Shown here: positions 1,509-52,381 of the stretch, piece after piece
Layout: each line of letters begins with the position of its first letter
Position numbering within the stretch: position 1 is the first letter of the stretch
Assembly: GCA_964549615.1 (NCBI GenBank)
Contig: CAZJVP010000051.1
Location: forward strand, 58,740 to 122,739
DNA from: an uncultured Thermococci archaeon
Lineage (GTDB): Archaea; CAYQAE01; CAYVLA01
Direction of reading: 5' to 3'
DNA: 64,000 nucleotides
Made by a program: the position numbers and the translations under genes
Notes under the pieces: generated by a model
What the model was told of the DNA's origin: nothing
The model's database searches: none
The model's input: the letters and a program-made list of their open reading frames with translations, nothing else

Positions 1509-2756
1509 ATGCGGCCTTGGCAGTTTCCGGGCTGCCTCATACAAGGCTTTGTTGCGCTTGCCTTGCTTGCGCCGGCCTGCCTAGGAGCCGGAAGGCTCAA
1601 CATCTTGGCCATCGGCCAGGTAATGCCCGGCGAATGCTTGGTCCCGATGTGGTTTGACGCCGATCCGCTGGTGAGCTACGTCCTCATACCGACCGATATC
1701 GACGTCATGGGCGGACAGGGCGTCGCGGGACAGCGCGTCATGGAGGATGCATGGCGCAGGTACATAAGGATCTACTTCCCAAAGACCAGGCAAGCTCTTG
1801 TCCAGGGCTTTGAGTTCCTCGTTTTCCCCGACGGATACATCGAGCCCTTCACCGCCGCCCAGAAATCCGACATCAGGTACGCGTTGGAGAACGGCCTCGG
1901 GGCCTTCGTGACGATGGGCGGGGACCTTTCGGGTCCGACATACAAGTCCTATCCAGGTTGGAAGAACTCCGTGCTTTACGAGCTCATGCCCGTCGAGTTG
2001 ACCGACAACATGAGGCAGGATGGATCTGTTTTCACCATCAAGGTGCTCAAGGATGACCCTGCCGTTCTTTCGGCTTTCATTCCCTTCGGCATAGAAAGGG
2101 TACCCGGATCCGGTTTCACCTACCTATATCCCAGGGAAGGCGCCACGACTTGGGCCCGGCTTTTCTCCAGCGGACTTCCCTTAGGGGCGCCAGGCGCCTG
2201 GCTTGTGTCCTGGAGGTGTGGGCCCAATGGCGGGGACTTCTGGACGGTTGCGGATGACCTTGATCATCCGTGGTGGTCGTTCCAGCGAAACCAATACAAT
2301 ATGGACATATTCCTCAACATTCTTCTGTATTCGACCGGCCGCAGGCTCCCCGACGACATCCTCCTGATCCATGACCTGCGGAATCGCTACTGGAAGTACA
2401 ACCAGGAAAAACTCTTGTTGATGTCGCTGCTTGAGTTCGTGGATAGGTTCGGGGGAAACACGCGGTCGATCGAGAACGAGATAGGGGCAGTGGACCAGGA
2501 GAAGGAGACGTCGTTTGACCAGTATAGGCGCCAGGAGTTCAGCGAAGCATTGGACACGATAGACGCAGCCATAAAGAGGATCCTAGAGACGGCAAACAAC
2601 GCAATGAAGCTGAAGGACCGCGCCTTGATGTGGGTATACGTGACGGAGTGGTCTGCCGTTACGGGGACGCTGGCGGTGTCGGGCTTGGTGGTCTACAGCC
2701 TCCTGGTGAAGAGGAGACTGTACAAGGAAGTGAGGGTTACTCGATCGGGAGCCTAG
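1509..2756 (+). CDS. Paralog A of 5-member secreted/C-terminally membrane-anchored protein family (GGDLSGP/GGWESFGG motif; possible class-I glutamine-amidotransferase-like/GldG-like fold)
   Basis: 415 aa; N-terminal hydrophobic signal (LIQGFVALALLAPACLGAG), SD-like GGAGG upstream, C-terminal TM helix + basic tail (LKDRALMWVYVTEWSAVTGTLAVSGLVVYSLLVKRRLYKE); ~70% identical to 16446..17693(-). Confidence 0.6.
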   Translation: MRPWQFPGCLIQGFVALALLAPACLGAGRLNILAIGQVMPGECLVPMWFDADPLVSYVLIPTDIDVMGGQGVAGQRVMEDAWRRYIRIYFPKTRQALVQGFEFLVFPDGYIEPFTAAQKSDIRYALENGLGAFVTMGGDLSGPTYKSYPGWKNSVLYELMPVELTDNMRQDGSVFTIKVLKDDPAVLSAFIPFGIERVPGSGFTYLYPREGATTWARLFSSGLPLGAPGAWLVSWRCGPNGGDFWTVADDLDHPWWSFQRNQYNMDIFLNILLYSTGRRLPDDILLIHDLRNRYWKYNQEKLLLMSLLEFVDRFGGNTRSIENEIGAVDQEKETSFDQYRRQEFSEALDTIDAAIKRILETANNAMKLKDRALMWVYVTEWSAVTGTLAVSGLVVYSLLVKRRLYKEVRVTRSGA

Positions 2757-16445: not shown

Positions 16446-17693
16446 TCATTCTTGACCTCGAGACTTGGTCGATCTGACTTCCTTGTAAAGGATTCGGCGG
16501 ACGAGCAGGCTGTAGACCACAAGCCCCGACGCGAAAAGCGTCCCCGTCACGGCCGACCACTCGGTGACGTAAACCCACAACAGCGCCCGGTCCTTCAGCC
16601 TCATTGCATTGTTGGCAATCGAGGATATCCTGTCGAGCGCCTCCAGCATCGATTTGGAAGCTAGTGCGAAATCCTGCGTCCTGTATGCCTCAAAGGAATC
16701 CTCCTTCAACCGGCCCACGCGGGCTATCTCGGCCTCTAGCGTCCTTGTGTTTGCTCCGAACCTGTCGACGAAATCGAGAAGCGAGAAGAGGAGCAACCGG
16801 TCCTCGTTATACCGCCAGTAGCGCATCCTGAGATCGTGGACGAGGAGCACGTCCTCAGGCAGCGAACGGCCCGTTGAGTGAAGAAGGATGTTCAGGAAGA
16901 TGTCTATGGCGTACACGTTCTGGCTCAAACCGTGGACGGAGGACCACCACGTTGAGTCCAGGTCATCCGCGACAACCCAGAACAGGCCGCCGTTTGCACC
17001 AACCTTCCAGGATACGAGCCAATCGCCCGAGGCGCTCGATGGCAGGGTGGCGGATGAGAGCTTGCCCCAGAGGGTCGCTCCGGCCCTGGTCGTGAGGTAG
17101 GTGAAGGCGGAGGCTCCCCGGACGTTCTCAATTCCCAAAGGAACGAACATGGACAGGAGCGGTGGATCCTTCTTTACCACCTTGATGCTGAACGTCGACC
17201 CATCCTGCTTCATCTTGTCGTTCAGCTCGACGGGCAGGATCTCCTCCAGCACGGAGTTCTTCCAGCCGGGATAAGCCTTGCCCGTGGGGCTCGACAAGTC
17301 GCCTCCCATCGTCACGAAGGCTCCCAGGCCGCTTTCCATGGCGTATCTCATGTCGGCTATCTGGGCCGGCGTGAAAGGTTCGATGTAGCCGTCGGGAAAC
17401 ACGAAGAAGTCGAAGTCCTGGACGAGGGACTCGCGAGTCTTTGGGAAGTAGATCCTGATATAGCGGCGCCAAGCCTGTTCCATCACGCGCTGGCCTGCCA
17501 CGGCCTGGCCGGCCATGATGTCGATGTCCGTGGGGATGAGCACGTAATCCACCAGCGGGTCGGCGTCGAACCAGTAGGGTATGGGGGATTCGCCCGGCAT
17601 GACCTGCCCTATGGCCAGGACGTTGATCCCCTCCGTGCAGATGACCGCCGTTGGGCACATGAGGACGGAGAGGAGAATCCAGATGTATTTCAT
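16446..17693 (-). CDS. Paralog B of the 5-member secreted/C-terminally anchored family
   Basis: ORF extends to 17918 but signal peptide MKYIWILLSVLMCPTAVICTEG starts at 17693, giving 415 aa (same length as paralog A); motif block INVLAIGQVMPGE...WFDADPLVDYVLIPTDIDIMAGQ almost identical to A. Confidence 0.6.
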   Translation of the reverse strand: MKYIWILLSVLMCPTAVICTEGINVLAIGQVMPGESPIPYWFDADPLVDYVLIPTDIDIMAGQAVAGQRVMEQAWRRYIRIYFPKTRESLVQDFDFFVFPDGYIEPFTPAQIADMRYAMESGLGAFVTMGGDLSSPTGKAYPGWKNSVLEEILPVELNDKMKQDGSTFSIKVVKKDPPLLSMFVPLGIENVRGASAFTYLTTRAGATLWGKLSSATLPSSASGDWLVSWKVGANGGLFWVVADDLDSTWWSSVHGLSQNVYAIDIFLNILLHSTGRSLPEDVLLVHDLRMRYWRYNEDRLLLFSLLDFVDRFGANTRTLEAEIARVGRLKEDSFEAYRTQDFALASKSMLEALDRISSIANNAMRLKDRALLWVYVTEWSAVTGTLFASGLVVYSLLVRRILYKEVRSTKSRGQE

Positions 17694-18023
17694 GCGGCTA
17701 GCACCCAGGAAAGGCACAGCGGTCGTCTCGACGAGCTGTGGCGTGAAATCTCTCTTAATGGTTTCGAGGGTTGGTCGATCATTGGGGGGATCCGTTGACG
17801 TGTCGTCCGCCGCCCCCGTGGCACGATGCTCAAGCTGCGGTGCGGATGCGCGTGGGGTTTTCCACAACCCGAACAGGGACGGAACTCCAGAAAGTTCTCC
17901 GGAAGAGTCCCCGAACACGTTTTAAGACGGGAAACCCAACTACGTGCTTGGCCAGGGACATTCCTGACGTTGGGTGTGAGGCAGACAAGGTGGTTCTGGG
18001 TGAGACGCGTGGGCGTGTGCCTT

Positions 18024-36345: not shown

Positions 36346-36665
36346 TCATTGTGACTGTGACTGTGACTGTGACTGTGACTGTGACTGTGACTGTGACGGT
36401 ATCGTGGCGGATTGTGCCCAATCCGACAGTCGTGTATGGTACCTCATGGGCACAAGTGGTAGCGAATCCCCCACCAATGCAGCCCTCACGTGGAGGCCCG
36501 GGAAGGCGATGACCAGCTGCTTGCTCCCGCTGAATGCGTCCCTGATCACTAGTTCATCTTGGAGGCATCGATCTTCGCATCGACGAAGCTCCTGACGACC
36601 TTGCTGCCCTTGAACCCGGAGAGGCGCTCGGACACGATTCTAAGCAGGTGTCCTTCCATGGCCAT
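36346..36665 (-). pseudogene. Fpg/Nei fragment (copy B), N-terminal ~70 codons only, with stop + frameshift
   Basis: Minus strand reads MEGHLLRIVSERLSGFKGSKVVRSFVDAKIDASKMN*, then in another frame IRDAFSGSKQLVIAFPGLHVRAALVGDS, homologous to IREIFSRGKQLIIAFPDFHVRIHF of intact copy; homology ends at the microsatellite. Confidence 0.45.
36351..36397. repeat. Hexanucleotide microsatellite (GTGACT)x7.8
   Basis: Read directly: gtgactgtgactgtgactgtgactgtgactgtgactgtgactgtgac. Confidence 0.9.
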
Positions 36666-42079: not shown

Positions 42080-43381
42080 ATGCTCGTGGAAACTCCAGCG
42101 CAGAGCAGTAACATGCCTGCGCCCTCCGGTCAAGCTGGTGATGAGCCAGTCCACTGGCTTGCCGTCCTTTCCCTTGCATCGTGCGTCATGGGTTCGTCGG
42201 CGGCCACGGCCCTGGAGGACGGACGGATCGGGGTCCTCTACATCGGCTGCATCGCCCGTTCCCGGCCCTTCTGGGACATGAGGCAGGACCCTCTCTTCGC
42301 GCTCAGCTTCGTGCAGGCGACCCTTCGCTCGTCCGGAGCATGGGCCCCTATACAGCAGGTGTCGGGAGGAGGTGAAGTGGCCAGGATGGTGAGGCTGTAC
42401 ATGCCCCGAACCTACTCGCGGCTGACGTCGGGGTTCGATGTCATAGTCCTTTCCAACGCGAATCGATTCATGGTGGGCGTGAGCAACATCGAGATGGTCG
42501 CCCGTGCAGTCAGGGAGGGTGGCCTGGGGCTTTTCATGTCCGGAGGCTGGGAGAGCTTCGGGGGGCACAATCATCCCGACTGGGGAAGCACCTCGGTGGG
42601 CGATCTGCTTCCGACCGTGGATGTTGAGGGCTCCTGGGTGTCGCATCCGCGTGGCGACCTCAAGCTCGTGATCACCGACGAGAAGCACGAGTTCATCAGG
42701 AGCCTTCCCTGGGAGAGGGAGAAGGCGCAGTTCATGTTCGACTTCCACCACAACGTGGTCACAGCCAAAGAGGGTTCCCAGGTGCTTGCCCGGGTACGGG
42801 CTCCGGACTTGGATGATCCGGCCATGGTGAGCTGGGAGCTTGCGGGGGGAAACCGCGTCTTCGCCCTAACCGGCGAAGTCCACACGATGGCGTTAGGCCC
42901 GTGGCCGTACTACCTGGACTTCGGGGCAAACCTGATGATCTACCTTGACGGCCGCCCAGTTCCCCAAGACATCGACCTGGTGCACTCGCTCAGGACGACG
43001 ATGCACGCGGTCGCCGTAAGGAGGTCCCTGCTGATTAGCCTCCTGGAGTTCTGTGACTCCTTCGGCGCTGACACGGGCGGGATCACGGTCAGGACGGACG
43101 AGCTGGACAAGATCGCGGCGCAGGCAAAGCCCCTCTATCTGCAACTGCAGTTCCAAGAAACCCTAGACGCCTACAGGAGCGTCGAGGAGGGCCTGGCGAC
43201 GATCGAACAGGACGCAATGCGGCTGAAGGACAGAACCCTGTTTTGGATCTACATCATCGAATGGGTTGCCGTGACCGGAACCATGATGGTCTGCGGGGTC
43301 CTCCTTTGGTCGATCATGATCCGCCACAGTCTGTACAGAGAAACCCGAACGACAAGGTTGGAGCGCCTGGATCCACCCTGA
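42080..43381 (+). CDS. Paralog C of the 5-member secreted/C-terminally anchored family
   Basis: RIGVLYIGCIARS...DVIVLSNANRF...GLGLFMSGGWESFGG...LKDRTLFWIYIIEWVAVTGTMMVCGVLLWSIMIRHSLYRE. Confidence 0.6.
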   Translation: MLVETPAQSSNMPAPSGQAGDEPVHWLAVLSLASCVMGSSAATALEDGRIGVLYIGCIARSRPFWDMRQDPLFALSFVQATLRSSGAWAPIQQVSGGGEVARMVRLYMPRTYSRLTSGFDVIVLSNANRFMVGVSNIEMVARAVREGGLGLFMSGGWESFGGHNHPDWGSTSVGDLLPTVDVEGSWVSHPRGDLKLVITDEKHEFIRSLPWEREKAQFMFDFHHNVVTAKEGSQVLARVRAPDLDDPAMVSWELAGGNRVFALTGEVHTMALGPWPYYLDFGANLMIYLDGRPVPQDIDLVHSLRTTMHAVAVRRSLLISLLEFCDSFGADTGGITVRTDELDKIAAQAKPLYLQLQFQETLDAYRSVEEGLATIEQDAMRLKDRTLFWIYIIEWVAVTGTMMVCGVLLWSIMIRHSLYRETRTTRLERLDPP

Positions 43382-44721: not shown

Positions 44722-46044
44722 TTGGGAGGTCGGGAGGGGTGGCCGGGCCCGTTGGTGGTGGTGTCGGAAGATTCTTATCCGTTCTGGACCGAAGCGGGGT
44801 GGATGCTGGAGAATCGCCTTCTCCTCATAGCCGTCATCGCTGCGATCGCGGTGGGGCAAGCACGCCAGGGTTTGGCTCTGGAGGACCGCCGGATCGGCGT
44901 CCTGTACGTGAGCGATCCCATCAGGTCACCCGCCTTCACCTTCATGCGCGCCGAGCCCATCTTCTCCCTCACCTTCGTGGCCGCCTCCCTGAGGGGCTTC
45001 GGGGGCTGGGATCTGGACGACGTCCACAGGGCGATACGGCTCTATTTCCCGCGCATGTACCAGGATCTGACAAGCCGATTCGATGTCGTGGTCCTTGACA
45101 ATGCGAACCAGATGGCGATTACGCCTGAGCAGATCGAGCTGTTGGCACGGGGAGTGAGGGAGGCTGGCATAGGATTGCTCATGACGGGTGGCTGGGAAAG
45201 CTTCGGCGGCACGGGGACGGCCCAGCCCTCATGGGGCCCGACCGCGATCGGCGCCCTTCTTCCCGTCCAGTGCGTCGACGGCACATGGGTCGAATCGGGC
45301 AGGCTCGTCATCGACGAGCCGGAGCACGAGTTCGTGGCAAGCATCCCATGGGACCGCAAGGGCCCATTCATGCAGTCCTTCCACCACAACCTGGTCACCG
45401 TCAGGGAGGGGGGACAGTTGCTCGCCCATACCGACCGCAACCGGTATCAACCTGGTGGCGACCACCCGCTTTTCATCACGTGGGAGGTGGAAGGGGCAAG
45501 GGTCTTCGCGTGCACGGGCGAGATAGTCCAGATGGCATCGATCTTCAGCTACGGCGGCACGAACTACGACATCTGGGAGTACTACGGGGATTTCATAAGC
45601 AACCTGATGATCTACCTCGACAAGCGCCCGGTGCCCCAGGATGTCGATCTCGTCCATGCCGTGAGGTCGACGGCATTCCAAAGCAGGACCAGGGTCTCCC
45701 TGCTCTTGAGCCTCGTTGAGTTCGTCGAGTCCTTCGGGGCGAACGGCCAGGGGGTGATGCGCTCAGTCGACGAGCTGAACGGGGTCGTCGCCCAGGCCGA
45801 CGGTGCGTACCTTGACCTCAACTTCGAGGAGGTTCTGGAAATCTATCGCCGGATCGGAACGATGCTCGATGACATCGAAAAGCAGGCGCTTGAGCTCAAG
45901 GACCGAACGCTTCTCTGGGTCTACCTCGTCGAGTGGCTCGCGGTGACCGGAACCGCTCTGCTCGCCGGCTTCATCTTGTGGACGACCATGGTCCGGCGGA
46001 GATTCTACAAGGAGATGAAGGTCACTAGAATCGCGGCCCTCTAG
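44722..46044 (+). CDS. Paralog D of the 5-member family
   Basis: RIGVLYVSDPIRS...DVVVLDNANQM...GIGLLMTGGWESFGG...LKDRTLLWVYLVEWLAVTGTALLAGFILWTTMVRRRFYKE. Confidence 0.6.
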   Translation: MGGREGWPGPLVVVSEDSYPFWTEAGWMLENRLLLIAVIAAIAVGQARQGLALEDRRIGVLYVSDPIRSPAFTFMRAEPIFSLTFVAASLRGFGGWDLDDVHRAIRLYFPRMYQDLTSRFDVVVLDNANQMAITPEQIELLARGVREAGIGLLMTGGWESFGGTGTAQPSWGPTAIGALLPVQCVDGTWVESGRLVIDEPEHEFVASIPWDRKGPFMQSFHHNLVTVREGGQLLAHTDRNRYQPGGDHPLFITWEVEGARVFACTGEIVQMASIFSYGGTNYDIWEYYGDFISNLMIYLDKRPVPQDVDLVHAVRSTAFQSRTRVSLLLSLVEFVESFGANGQGVMRSVDELNGVVAQADGAYLDLNFEEVLEIYRRIGTMLDDIEKQALELKDRTLLWVYLVEWLAVTGTALLAGFILWTTMVRRRFYKEMKVTRIAAL

Positions 46045-47818: not shown

Positions 47819-49159
47819 TCAGGTCTTCTGTGCATGTAGCTTGGTTGTGTGGACCTCTCTCCATAGCCTGCGGCGCACCATAACCGACCACAGCACGAAG
47901 CCCGTCACCACTGCCGTTGCGGTCACCGTCAACCATTCGATCACATATACCCAGAGGAGGGCGCGGTCCTTGAGTTCCATGGCGTCTTTCTCTATCTCGC
48001 CAAGCGCTTCGTGGGCCTGCTCGTAGGCCTCAACCACATCCTCGAAGCGAAGCTCAAGATAGGCGGGCAGGGCGTCGAGCGCGATGCGGTTTGCTTCGTC
48101 CAACCTCATATTGATCGAGTTCGTGTTTGCGCCGAAGGAGTCGCAGAATTCCAGAAGGCCGACCAAGAGCGACTTCCGGGTGCCGAACTCGAACATGCTC
48201 TTCCTCACTCGATGGACAAGCTCCACATCCTGGGGCACGGGCCGCCGATCGAGGTAGATCATGAGGTTGGCACCGAAGTCCAGGGCGTATTCCCAGGGGT
48301 CGCCAGGAGTGCACATGGTGTGCAACTGGTAGGGCTCGGAACTGGGCCCGAAGATCTCGCCCGTGATCGAGAAGGTTCGGCCCCCGCCCGGCAGATCCCA
48401 GGTGACGAAGCCCGGGTCATCCTTGTACCCGGGTCCCTCGACGTGTGCCAGCACCAAGGATCCCGGCTTCGCCTTCACCAGGTTGTGGTGGTAGTTGTAC
48501 ATGAAAGGCTGGGTCCTGTCCCATGGCAGGCTGCTCATGAACTCGTGATCGGGCATGTCGATGACGAGTGTGTGGACGTTGGCCGGGCGGTGGATGTAGA
48601 TGTTGCCCGCATCCTCGGTGGGAAGCAGCTGGCCTATGGCCGAGTCGCCCCAGGGCGGCCTCCCGAACGCGCCGCCGAAGCTCTCCCACCCACCCACCAT
48701 GACAAGTCCCATGCCGGCCTCCCGCACGCCACGCGCCAGCATCTCGATGTGCGTCGGTGGGATCGCTTCCCTGTTTGCGTTGGACAGGATGATGACATCG
48801 AAGCGGGATGTCAGGTCCGAAAAGGACCGTGGCATATACAGCCTCACGATCCTGTAGATCTCGCCCTCACCCTTGGTGGCCTGGATGGGCGCCAGGGCGG
48901 CCCAGTCGCGGAGCGTTGCCTGGACGAAGTTGATCGAGAAGAGGGGATCGGACCTCATCCACCAGATCGGCGTGGAACGGGCAAGGCAGCCGGCGTAAAG
49001 CACCCCTATTCTTCCGTCCTGAAGGGCCGTCGTCGTTGAGAGAGCCGCTTGAAGGGCAAGGAGCACGGCAGCCGCTAGGGCTGGGCGGCAGCCAAGCTTG
49101 TGAGCGAAGCCTGCCTGCAGCGACACAGGGGTCGTGCGGCTGACGGCGGCCATGCTCAC
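47819..49159 (-). CDS. Paralog E of the 5-member family
   Basis: RIGVLYAGCLARS...DVIILSNANRE...GMGLVMVGGWESFGG...LKDRALLWVYVIEWLTVTATAVVTGFVLWSVMVRRRLWRE. Confidence 0.6.
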   Translation of the reverse strand: MSMAAVSRTTPVSLQAGFAHKLGCRPALAAAVLLALQAALSTTTALQDGRIGVLYAGCLARSTPIWWMRSDPLFSINFVQATLRDWAALAPIQATKGEGEIYRIVRLYMPRSFSDLTSRFDVIILSNANREAIPPTHIEMLARGVREAGMGLVMVGGWESFGGAFGRPPWGDSAIGQLLPTEDAGNIYIHRPANVHTLVIDMPDHEFMSSLPWDRTQPFMYNYHHNLVKAKPGSLVLAHVEGPGYKDDPGFVTWDLPGGGRTFSITGEIFGPSSEPYQLHTMCTPGDPWEYALDFGANLMIYLDRRPVPQDVELVHRVRKSMFEFGTRKSLLVGLLEFCDSFGANTNSINMRLDEANRIALDALPAYLELRFEDVVEAYEQAHEALGEIEKDAMELKDRALLWVYVIEWLTVTATAVVTGFVLWSVMVRRRLWREVHTTKLHAQKT

Positions 49160-49384
49160 CGGGTTGGGCTTCGGAGTTTTAACGCTTTGCGGTCCTCATT
49201 TCACCGGGTTCCTGGTTCCTGGATGTGATGAGCGATGCGCCTTCAAGATGCATGTGGTTCGATGGTCTCCAGGCTCTGGTCGGAAACGACGTGACACCCG
49301 CTGACAGCTCGCCGCTGGTTTGATGGAGTTTGTCGAAGGATCGAAGACATATTCGGGCGGGGTTCCGACCTCGGAAGTCCTCGA

Positions 49385-49468
49385 GGCGCACGGGCCTTGG
49401 CACGGGTTGACCTCTTGGCACGGGTTGACCTCTTGGCACGGGTTGACCTCTTGGCACGAGTTGACCCC
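49385..49468. repeat. 18-bp tandem repeat (TTGGCACGGGTTGACCTC) x4 plus partial leading copy, in 600-bp divergent intergenic region
   Basis: Read directly 49397-49468; last unit variant ttggcacgagttgacccc. Confidence 0.85.
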
Positions 49469-49764
49469 ATAAACGCAAAGCCAAGCCGGTCCAATCTTCT
49501 TCAAGTTGGACGACGCTTTGGCCGGCGATTTCATACTCTTCTTCTGGCAGGGCGTCTACGATTTCTTCCGCCTGAGGGTCCCAGAGGCACCAAGCTCAAG
49601 GTCGAGGGGATTCGGTGGCCCACGGGTCGGCCAGAGATCAGTCCCGTTCCGCAATTGGCCAAAATTCTGTTTCTGGGCCGGATATCTCGCACATCAATCC
49701 TATTTGAAGCTTTTCTAATTATGCATAGAAAGAGTTTTGAGGTCCCTATGTTTTCTATGGTTGG

Positions 49765-50178
49765 TTGGAAAAGATGGGGAAAGCCGAGAGGAAGGTGCTG
49801 ATCAAGTACGACTCGAAGGGGGTGGGCCCGGACTTTTGGCAGAAGCTCTATGGCTACTCCAAAGGCAAGTACCGTTACCCCGGACTTCTGGACGATGTGC
49901 CCGGAGCTGTGAGGATGGCCAAGGGGCTCATTGCGGTTCCGGAGGTGCAGGCGGAGAGGATCAAACGCTTCCTAAGAGAACAGGGCGCTACGTTTGAGGA
50001 GCAGGGGACGGTGGCACCGGCAATCGAGGCTCCGGGGCTTCTCCGCTGGGATCTCGCCCGGCACGTCCTTCACGAGAGGCTGGAAGGCTTGGGGGAGGAG
50101 ATGGACAGATTGGGCCCCTTCATCAAGGCCGTTTCGACAAGGGACGCCCTTGAGGACTTGGAGAGGTATGGCTACTGA
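49765..50178 (+). CDS. Uncharacterised 137-aa protein, candidate partner of downstream PIN toxin
   Basis: AT-rich region with possible promoter upstream; stop overlaps PIN start (ATGGCTACTGA). Confidence 0.4.
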   Translation: MEKMGKAERKVLIKYDSKGVGPDFWQKLYGYSKGKYRYPGLLDDVPGAVRMAKGLIAVPEVQAERIKRFLREQGATFEEQGTVAPAIEAPGLLRWDLARHVLHERLEGLGEEMDRLGPFIKAVSTRDALEDLERYGY

Positions 50179-50677
50179 GGTCGTGCTCGATACCAGCTAC
50201 CTGCTGGCCTGGCACAGGGAGAACGATAGGCTTCATCCCAGGGCCGAGAAGATCCAGGAGAGCCTTGCGAGGGCAAAGCCGGTTCGCATCATCCTTGATT
50301 GCGTTTACTCCGAACTGATCGCCGTCCTGGCTAGAACAAGGGTCAGGGAGGAGGGAAAGGCACGGGAATTCCTGGAGGAGGAAAGGAAGCTGAGGCAGGT
50401 CTACTGGCCTAGGCTTGTCTGGATGACGTATATTGGAGGTAAAGACCTCATAAAGCGTGCCCTGGATGTGACGAGGGAGGCCGCCGAGAAATACGGGGTC
50501 GGGATCTCGCCCAACGACGCTATGCTCCTGATCTTCTGCCGGGAGAGGCACGTCCCGTTTCTGGTGAGCTTCGATAGAAGCCTTGGGCAGGTTGAGACGG
50601 TTGAGGGTAAGAAGTCGGAGGTCACGGTCGTGGACGATTCCAACAGGGAGGTTTTGCTAAGGCCAGGGAGTGTATGA
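50168..50677 (+). CDS. PIN-domain protein (VapC-like toxin)
   Basis: MATEVVLDTSYLLAW... ; ORF track frame opens at 49994 but GGAGAGGT SD and ATG at 50168. Confidence 0.55.
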   Translation: MATEVVLDTSYLLAWHRENDRLHPRAEKIQESLARAKPVRIILDCVYSELIAVLARTRVREEGKAREFLEEERKLRQVYWPRLVWMTYIGGKDLIKRALDVTREAAEKYGVGISPNDAMLLIFCRERHVPFLVSFDRSLGQVETVEGKKSEVTVVDDSNREVLLRPGSV

Positions 50678-50875: not shown

Positions 50876-52381
50876 CTATTTCTTCAGAATTGCGGGCTGC
50901 GTGGAAAGCGTGAAGGGCTTGCCGTCTCTCTCGAAGTCCGCCTCCCCGAACACGGCAACGTTCTTGTCGGCGGGCCGCTCGATGGTCACCCGAAGCACGC
51001 CCTCTTCGCTCGCCATTTCCACCGGCTCCCATCTCTCCGGGCGGAAGTCCATGCTGTCGGCCTTGGCAACCCAGGCCCGGCCCCTCTTTGCCTCTTTGGC
51101 CTTGATCGTCAGCGTTAGCGTATCTCCCCTGGCCTTCCGCATCCACGAAATCTCTGGCATGCTGTCGCCTCCCGCCACGGTGCGGAAGAAGGCGCTCAAG
51201 GTGTTGAGAACCCTCGTCATGCCCGGCTCAAGGCTGTGGCCGGCGTTGGGCACGTAAAGCACATACTTGGGCCCGACTAGGCCATCCCAATATAGGTTCA
51301 GGGCATCCGTGGTCCAGTAACGGTCATTTGAGCCGAGGATGATGAGTTTCGGGACGGCGATAATCTTCCTGTAGGAGTACGGATCGACCGCCTGCCAAAG
51401 CGCCTTTCCCCGCCGGCTACTGAAACTCTCCGTGAGCCCCTTCGAGGAGTAGTCCGAGATCTGCTCGCTGTAGCTCCCCCACATCTCCAACTGGTGCTTC
51501 ATCTGTTTGGGCATGTTCAGCACGTCGATCACCGCGGGCGCGATGGCCTTTACTCGCCTACCCCCGTCCACCGCCGCCGTCAGCCACGTTGTCCAACCCC
51601 TCTTCGACGCGCCGAAGACCACGAAGCCGCATATCTTCTCCTGCCACTCCTGTTTTGCATGCTCTTGCAGCGCATCCATCGCTCTGAGTGCGCTCTTCAC
51701 CATCGGGAAGAGCAGCGGCCAGGTCGGGTCGCCGTCCTTCAAGTACTGCTGGAAAGTGTGCGAAATGATCTCATCCTCAATCATCCCGCCGAAAAGCGGC
51801 TGGTTTGGCACGTGGCTGAGCATCGCGACCGGCGCCCCCACCGAACGCGCTAGCCCCATCGCGAGAACATCTTCTTTCCGCTCCTCGCCCGGCTTCGGTT
51901 CTCCTGATCCGCCGCCGATCAGCAGTCCCATCCAACCCGGGAAACTCACCTGGGCCGGTCTCGCTATCCGCAACAGGTGCTTCCAGGCCATGCCTCGCCA
52001 CATCTGGGAGGTCAAGACGATGTCGCTCAGCGAGCCGCCCGCAACCTCCTTCGATGGTCCCTTCTTCCAATCGAAGGTGGGGTCCGGGGCATTCGCGTAA
52101 TCAAACAGCATCTCCGCAGGCGCCCCGGCAAATCGGGACCCGGCCGTCGTCGTTAGCAGGCTGCTGAGGGCTAGGGTGAACGGAGAATTCAAAGTGGTCC
52201 TTGGTCCGGCCAGCTTTTCGTGCCCCTTGGACAGACGTGGGCAGGAATGCTTGGCGGGCGAGACGTGGCTATGGCAGAAGGTCACCTTGCAGAGCCTGTA
52301 ACGGACCGGCTTGAGGAGCAGCTTGCCGCACTCGAAACGCCCGTGTCCAGTGTTTTCGTCAGGGGTTGCCCTCCGTTCCAT
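50876..52381 (-). CDS. PhoPQ-activated pathogenicity-related (PqaA-like) alpha/beta-hydrolase family protein
   Basis: GFVVFGASKRGWTTW (GxSxG-like), overall resemblance to the PqaA family; true start probably internal. Confidence 0.4.
   Translation of the reverse strand: MERRATPDENTGHGRFECGKLLLKPVRYRLCKVTFCHSHVSPAKHSCPRLSKGHEKLAGPRTTLNSPFTLALSSLLTTTAGSRFAGAPAEMLFDYANAPDPTFDWKKGPSKEVAGGSLSDIVLTSQMWRGMAWKHLLRIARPAQVSFPGWMGLLIGGGSGEPKPGEERKEDVLAMGLARSVGAPVAMLSHVPNQPLFGGMIEDEIISHTFQQYLKDGDPTWPLLFPMVKSALRAMDALQEHAKQEWQEKICGFVVFGASKRGWTTWLTAAVDGGRRVKAIAPAVIDVLNMPKQMKHQLEMWGSYSEQISDYSSKGLTESFSSRRGKALWQAVDPYSYRKIIAVPKLIILGSNDRYWTTDALNLYWDGLVGPKYVLYVPNAGHSLEPGMTRVLNTLSAFFRTVAGGDSMPEISWMRKARGDTLTLTIKAKEAKRGRAWVAKADSMDFRPERWEPVEMASEEGVLRVTIERPADKNVAVFGEADFERDGKPFTLSTQPAILKK

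Follow-up and report, generated by a model that had tools for sequence, protein, structure and literature searches.

An 18-bp tandem array between a GATase1-like gene and a PIN operon in an archaeon related to Theionarchaea is probably a young minisatellite derived from the leader of a decayed GH32 gene

The window analysed here, meaning the whole 64-kb stretch of DNA under study, has a GC content of about 60% and contains a cluster of contiguous 18-bp repeats in the gap between two divergently oriented transcription units. On the minus strand lies the gene that we call paralog E (47819-49153), which encodes a 444-aa GATase1-like membrane protein (Pfam PF07090) identical to P0001. On the plus strand is a PIN operon, composed of a gene for a 134-aa protein in the antitoxin position, with no Pfam match (49774-50178), and a gene for a 169-aa PIN-domain toxin (50168-50677; Pfam PF01850, E 8.8e-12) that overlaps the preceding one by 11 nt. 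The called genes start at internal ATG codons and not at the start codons given by the ORF finder; with the ATG of paralog E at 49153 and that of the first gene of the operon at 49774, the gap measures 620 bp, which agrees with the intergenic region of 600 bp indicated in the first-pass annotation. The surroundings are chromosomal and include tRNA-Thr, TruA, citramalate synthase and sugar-metabolism genes. Five membrane paralogs of the GATase1-like family (PF07090) are present in the window (1509-2756, 16446-17918, 42080-43381, 44722-46044 and 47819-49153), three of them within 7 kb, and the family comprises hundreds of metagenome homologues, the few named ones being from Theionarchaea. A search of 5.8 billion proteins gave no more than seven homologues of the protein in the antitoxin position; in the four homologue contigs that were looked up (4/4), the gene is immediately followed by a PIN gene and the two overlap by about 11 nt (29 nt in contig L143). 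At 50876-52381, on the minus strand, there is a gene for a PF10142 PhoPQ-activated pathogenicity-related protein (E 1e-100), whose N-terminus has a match to an AN1-type zinc finger that falls below the gathering score (E 2.7e-5), an unusual pairing for an archaeon.

For paralog E, the closest homologues that carry an organism name come from Theionarchaea. Among the best 120 homologues of the citramalate synthase, all the named ones are archaeal save one partial sequence labelled 'bacterium' at NCBI, and they include Theionarchaea (70% identity), Nezhaarchaeota, Methanomethylicaceae and others. Homologue taxonomy thus places the host among the archaea, near Theionarchaea.

The array is made up of three identical head-to-tail copies of the unit TTGGCACGGGTTGACCTC, starting at 49397, 49415 and 49433 and spanning 49397-49450, followed at 49451-49468 by a terminal variant unit with two mismatches, TTGGCACGAGTTGACCCC, as located by pattern search. 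Its left flank (49385-49396) reads GGCGCACGGGCC, a partial copy and possible seed that has GCACGGG in common with the unit (repeat family D5/D2). The description of about four head-to-tail 18-bp units plus a partial copy, made initially from the letters, is therefore confirmed. Tandem Repeats Finder calls the array at 49396-49466 with a period of 18, 3.9 copies, 98% matches and a score of 135, which makes it the top-scoring tandem repeat of the window, where only two arrays score above 50. When the window was searched for TTGGCACGGGTTGACCTC with up to three mismatches, the motif gave zero further matches beyond the four array positions, so that the suggested search for the 18-mer elsewhere came out empty in these 64 kb, and out of 100 dinucleotide-preserving shuffles not one contained four or more matches to the 18-mer. 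Adenine accounts for 2 of the 18 nt of the unit, and the GC content of the surroundings of the array is 0.57-0.60. Dyad symmetry within the unit is limited to the quasi-palindrome GGTTGACC, and the array has no inverted repeat. The start-to-start distance is 18 bp, identical to the unit length, hence there are no spacers as in a CRISPR; head-to-tail units of 10-100 bp, in a number beyond chance, are those of a VNTR or minisatellite.

Three further contigs contain orthologs of paralog E with 85-88% amino-acid identity: L134 (from ENA), and L138 and L139 (both from JGI). Where the window has the divergent PIN operon, all three contain an intact gene of the GH32 family of glycoside hydrolases. 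The GH32 fragment of L134 matches Pfam PF00251 (E 6.9e-30), and the intact genes of L138 and L139 encode about 475 aa. In window coordinates, nucleotide homology covers paralog E and continues across the intergenic region as far as about 49630-49640. The 170 bp 3' of the array encode GH32 residues 4-57 across three reading frames, as a 5' relic of this gene (49469-49640, plus strand) that was delimited by tblastn, nucleotide alignment and three-frame translation. The codon immediately after the array is ATA (49469-49471) in the window and ATG in the relatives; the reading frame of the relic is shifted by an insertion (+1, near 49477) and by two deletions (-1, near 49580 and 49620), and the homology of the relic ends near 49640, at about codon 57 of roughly 475. 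With the L134 GH32 fragment as query, the only significant tblastn match in the 64-kb window was at 49479-49655 (E 7e-10). A 3' remnant of the gene was looked for after the PIN gene, as was synteny with L138 or L139 past the relic, and neither was found. The homology to the GH32 N-terminal domain is thus retained and the intact ORF is not, and from its sequence the GH32 gene is to be regarded as dead in this lineage.

The leader of the former gene can also be traced. In L134 and L138 an AT-rich, TATA-like block, AATATTA, is located 62 nt 5' of the GH32 ATG, and alignment with these two contigs places its degenerate remnant in the window at 49347-49355 (plus strand; ACATATTCG), where CATATTC is read. 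We infer that this block was the TATA box of GH32, in which case the 18-bp unit lay within the 5' leader of the gene. L134 and L138 have one copy of the unit, reading CCCGGGACGGGTTGACACC, immediately 5' of the GH32 ATG, while in L139 the matching stretch before the ATG has diverged to GGGGACTAGGTGCATGCC. The presence of one copy in the three relatives, diverged in one of them, shows that the single copy is the ancestral state and that the sequence is not strongly conserved; the expansion is derived, as is the case for VNTR loci, the orthologous site being single-copy in L134, L138 and L139. MAFFT pairs the terminal variant unit of the array with the single copy that precedes the GH32 ATG in the three relatives, a placement that is ambiguous within a perfect array. 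A more distant ortholog of paralog E (81%), in contig L132, has another upstream neighbour, and the repeat is absent there.

Some additional features of the spacer were observed. In L139 (3515-3995) paralog E and GH32 are separated by about 210 bp more DNA, which holds a 52-codon ORF fragment (…VEQKYYAPGIGTIVETSRDGSERVVLLKFSAGS) that looks like a protein C-terminus; in view of this extra DNA, the paralog E-GH32 spacer is subject to repeated rearrangement in the lineage. Two blocks with good conservation, TGGATGYGATGAGCGAT and GGTTTGATGGAGTTTGT (window 49221-49240 and 49317-49335), are present in L134 and L138 and absent from L139, with no Rfam match. A C/D-box sRNA was considered for the blocks at 49221-49340 and rejected by eye, given the poor order and conservation of the boxes and the absence of the blocks from L139.

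The first-pass annotation had regarded the gap as an unusually long divergent promoter region. This was not borne out by the comparison with other loci, since each of the flanking genes has its own short control region, whose conservation extends to loci without the array. For paralog E, a promoter-like block on the minus strand (49173-49188; GGAGTTTTAACGCTTT in plus-strand reading) corresponds to invariant alignment columns: TTTAACGCTTT (49178-49188) is invariant in the four orthologous paralog E loci (4/4), and a minus-strand TTAAAA has its centre some 26 nt ahead of the ATG. A TATA-like box some 26 nt upstream of the ATG is the geometry of archaeal promoters for leaderless mRNAs, and the block suggests a promoter giving rise to a leaderless transcript. 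It lies at most 40 bp from the ATG of paralog E, and the array starts 208 bp beyond it. On the other side, homologues of the PIN cassette were found in three other genomic contexts (L135, L136 and L137), with which it shares only about 85 bp of upstream sequence. In the four-way alignment this region occupies 49689-49773 (plus strand), the homology to L135 and L136 starting at 49689, and contains an AT-rich palindrome, TTCTA-N8-TAGAA (49713-49730; inverted repeat I1), that is invariant in the PIN cassettes. A further TTTTCTA is seen at 49751-49757. It is plausible that these elements represent a candidate TATA box plus an autoregulatory operator of the toxin-antitoxin operon. The array ends 305 bp short of the first ATG of the PIN operon, and the cassettes of L135, L136 and L137 do not contain the 18-mer. 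The 18-mer therefore does not travel with the cassette as a VapBC-like operator would, the invariant palindrome being found there instead.

The 620-bp gap is therefore a mosaic formed by the promoter region of paralog E, the former GH32 leader with the array, the GH32 relic and the promoter of the cassette. The intergenic region is long because it holds the relic, and not because of a large promoter, so that the succession of relic and cassette explains the oversized gap and marks a synteny breakpoint.

The exact paralog E protein is also encoded on ENA contig L130 and JGI contig L131, which offered the possibility of comparing near-identical haplotypes. Aligned with the window along 13.3 kb, L130 shows two mismatches and a single gap, which corresponds to exactly one 18-bp unit, one of the three identical copies being missing, which leaves it with three; this step is the sole indel in the 13.3 kb compared. 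L131 differs along 9.7 kb by two mismatches, at positions other than those of L130, and has four copies. Window, L130 and L131 thus constitute three separate haplotypes (4, 3 and 4 copies, respectively), with an identity above 99.97%. Copy number thus differs among closely related strains, as in VNTR loci, the figures being assembly-level values and not read counts, from samples that may share their origin. The choice of the assembler between co-existing alleles could possibly explain the difference between three and four copies, and polymorphism would still be implied. An assembly artefact is ruled out as the origin of the array itself, because it is seen in the window, in L131, in L130 and at the end of the Logan contig L143. 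The latter, from another run, has its first position at window 49429, inside the array, and another JGI contig, L142, starts at window 49579, adjoining a SNP at 49578; these ends are typical of assembly breaks resulting from strain heterogeneity and from the repeat.

With these data, we consider it most likely that the array is a young, lineage-specific and copy-variable minisatellite, born from 18 bp of the GH32 leader by slippage or unequal recombination and without a regulatory role. One 18-bp stretch in front of the start codon of GH32, divergent from paralog E, would have undergone tandem duplication, likely through slippage during replication or through unequal recombination, for which the short flanking repeat GCACGGG could have been the seed, perhaps aided by the quasi-palindrome GGTTGACC. 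In this lineage GH32 has lost its start codon, acquired three frameshifts and lost everything past about codon 57, and a toxin-antitoxin cassette with its own promoter now lies 3' of the relic, the order of gene death and expansion being presumed. Since the gene is dead and the cassette has its own promoter, the array would sit in unconstrained DNA, where it may expand and contract by 18-bp steps. The three internal units are identical and only the edge unit differs, as expected if the expansion is recent. The edge unit has the ancestral C at position 17, where the internal units share a derived T, which implies at least two duplication rounds in addition to the current 3/4 polymorphism. With regard to the mechanism, archaeal PolB and PolD have been reported to slip on tandem-repeat templates, and for the repeats of Borgs, extrachromosomal elements of Methanoperedens, flanking partial repeats have been described as possible seeds, along with within-population variation in unit number (PMC9879509).

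The absence of conservation indicates that the array is probably neutral. The suggestion that it could be a recombination hotspot stands in a weak form, that of a slippage-prone, copy-variable locus (4/4/3), and not in any stronger sense. It had also been proposed that a repeat number varying randomly between strains, with no conserved position relative to genes, would speak against a function: the number does vary, while the array keeps a constant position with respect to a gene, one that has died. The biological weight of the array would be small, as an ordinary hypermutable repeat in decaying DNA.

Among known systems, the closest likeness is to prokaryotic VNTR/MLVA minisatellites, generated by slipped-strand mispairing, which also consist of near-perfect head-to-tail units of 10-100 bp with a divergent edge copy, are non-coding, vary in copy number among near-identical strains and are single-copy in related species. 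The array differs from those loci in its host, an uncultured archaeon related to Theionarchaea and not a typed bacterial pathogen, in stemming from the leader of a pseudogene, and in that its polymorphism is known from assemblies only. Borg repeats (PMC9879509) share with it an archaeal context, units of some 18-20 nt that are perfect or nearly so, a partial repeat on the flank and a recent origin, with the repeat missing in close relatives and the number of units variable within populations. Perfect units, a partial copy (49385-49396) and 3/4 variation are all found here; however, Borg repeats are pervasive and contain about 48% A, whereas the array unit is not adenine-rich (2 A in 18 nt) and the window has just two notable arrays, about 60% GC, housekeeping genes and a chromosomal setting.

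The alternative that the first-pass annotation put forward is a transcription-factor binding array, which could be a platform with multiple sites (an upstream activating or repressing sequence) for an archaeal transcription factor controlling paralog E, the PIN operon or both. Repeated sites are typical of cooperative binding, and four phased 18-mers with a quasi-palindrome between two divergent genes would be suited to that purpose. Nonetheless, the array is 208 bp from the paralog E block and 305 bp from the ATG of the PIN operon, and both the relatives L134, L138 and L139 and the PIN cassettes of L135, L136 and L137 keep their short upstream blocks without it. The motif is found nowhere else in the window, including the regions upstream of the other four paralogs, its copies vary among near-identical haplotypes, and there is no adjacent regulator gene. 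Given its distance from the promoters, its lack of conservation, its absence elsewhere in the window and its copy variation, we consider a transcription factor-binding array very unlikely. In larger collections, TTGGCACGRGTTGACC gives at least 120 loci in a genome collection of 596 Gb, with a single match each and unrelated taxa among those listed, where several hundred matches are estimated to be expected by chance for a pattern of 15.5 bases, and nine single matches in viral contigs. A 24-mer spanning the unit junction had no match in the metagenome collection, which is incomplete, since L131 carries this 24-mer.

A second alternative would give the repeat a past function, as the remains of a contingency locus in which the number of copies in the leader once tuned or phase-varied GH32, the gene having decayed later. 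In bacteria, repeats located between promoter and start codon are a phase-variation device, and the array resembles such loci as a copy-variable tract between the presumed remnant of the GH32 promoter and the former start codon. It differs from them in that its gene is a dead relic and in the length of the unit, 18 bp as compared with the usual 1-7 bp. In addition, the unit is not repeated in any of the three relatives whose GH32 is intact (0/3), and GH32 is dead in all the haplotypes with an expanded array, so that the data require no selective benefit. A contingency locus is, in our opinion, very unlikely.

A function could also have been acquired recently. The array could be a newborn cis-element, arising either through a chromosomal case, in a Theionarchaea-related archaeon, of the rapid process by which Borgs become filled with perfect tandem repeats, or as a de novo binding platform or leader RNA that affects paralog E or the toxin-antitoxin operon after the loss of GH32. 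We assign this a small probability, the neutral minisatellite being the reading that we favour.

It could also be thought that the repeat yields a product, be it a functional leader or regulatory RNA or a peptide with LARVDL repeats encoded by the ORF at 49397-49801. The unit length is divisible by three and this 134-codon ORF spans the array; its TTG start, however, is inside the array, it was not called by any pipeline, it has no Pfam match, and it crosses the frameshifted GH32 relic and then the promoter and start of the PIN operon. More generally, Pfam recognises none of the ORFs that run across the array, and independent gene callers left this stretch without a gene. As for an RNA, intergenic tandem repeats of Borgs have been proposed to be regulatory RNAs (PMC9879509), and the plus strand of the array folds slightly better than shuffled sequences. 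However, the z-score is weak (-1.98; +1.12 for the minus strand), and the array is absent in relatives. Rfam searches gave nothing for 49100-49800 at E<=1 and only tRNA-Thr for the whole window at the gathering threshold. Such a product is highly improbable.

The same low probability applies to iterons, or to another site of replication or site-specific recombination of a mobile element. The four direct repeats are in the size range of plasmid iterons (about 18-22 bp), a toxin-antitoxin module, typical of mobile DNA, is nearby, and the break in synteny is 170-220 bp away. Against this, there is no initiator gene, no rep, orc, integrase or transposase gene is adjacent, and no AT-rich unwinding region is found beside the array (GC 0.57-0.60). 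Unlike iterons, the repeats are strictly contiguous, not conserved and chromosomal, being surrounded by tRNA-Thr, TruA and citramalate synthase, and the relatives are single-copy. Relative to the breakpoint, the array lies with GH32 and paralog E and not within the cassette, whose homology begins at 49689; the absence of the repeat from the other copies of the cassette (L135, L136 and L137) led us to reject a mobile-element site.

Lastly, the resemblance of TTGGCAC and TTGACC to sigma-54 or TetR-type elements, also raised initially, is a false lead, already refuted by taxonomy and spacing, to which we give practically no credence: the heptamer TGGCACG (TTGGCACG) fits the -24 element of the sigma-54 consensus, but TGGCAC is followed by GGGTTGACC (GGGTT-GACC) and not by N5-TTGC, so that the -12 TTGC is missing at the required spacing and the TTGA present is 2 nt too close and ends in A; the homologues are archaeal and archaea are not known to have sigma factors, sigma-54 included, an archaeal host therefore implying no sigma-54; and for a TetR-type or other palindromic operator the unit lacks dyad symmetry, both promoter blocks are over 200 bp away from the array, and its neighbours, according to Pfam, are the GATase1-like, PIN and 134-aa proteins, with no cognate regulator, TetR or other, beside it. 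No sigma-54-like or operator array needs to be considered here.

Apart from the array, the window has one strong tandem repeat, a perfect (TGTGAC)x8 at 36350-36397, apparently non-coding, located between a gene for a 221-aa protein and a HIT-family gene. Length polymorphisms in the compared regions of near-identical haplotypes are confined to tandem repeats. The 18-bp array and (TGTGAC)n constitute two length markers that separate near-identical strains of this uncultured archaeon, and the tandem repeats of this population also produce contig breaks. The number of (TGTGAC) copies is 8 in the window, 8 in ENA contig L145 and 11 in JGI contig L144.
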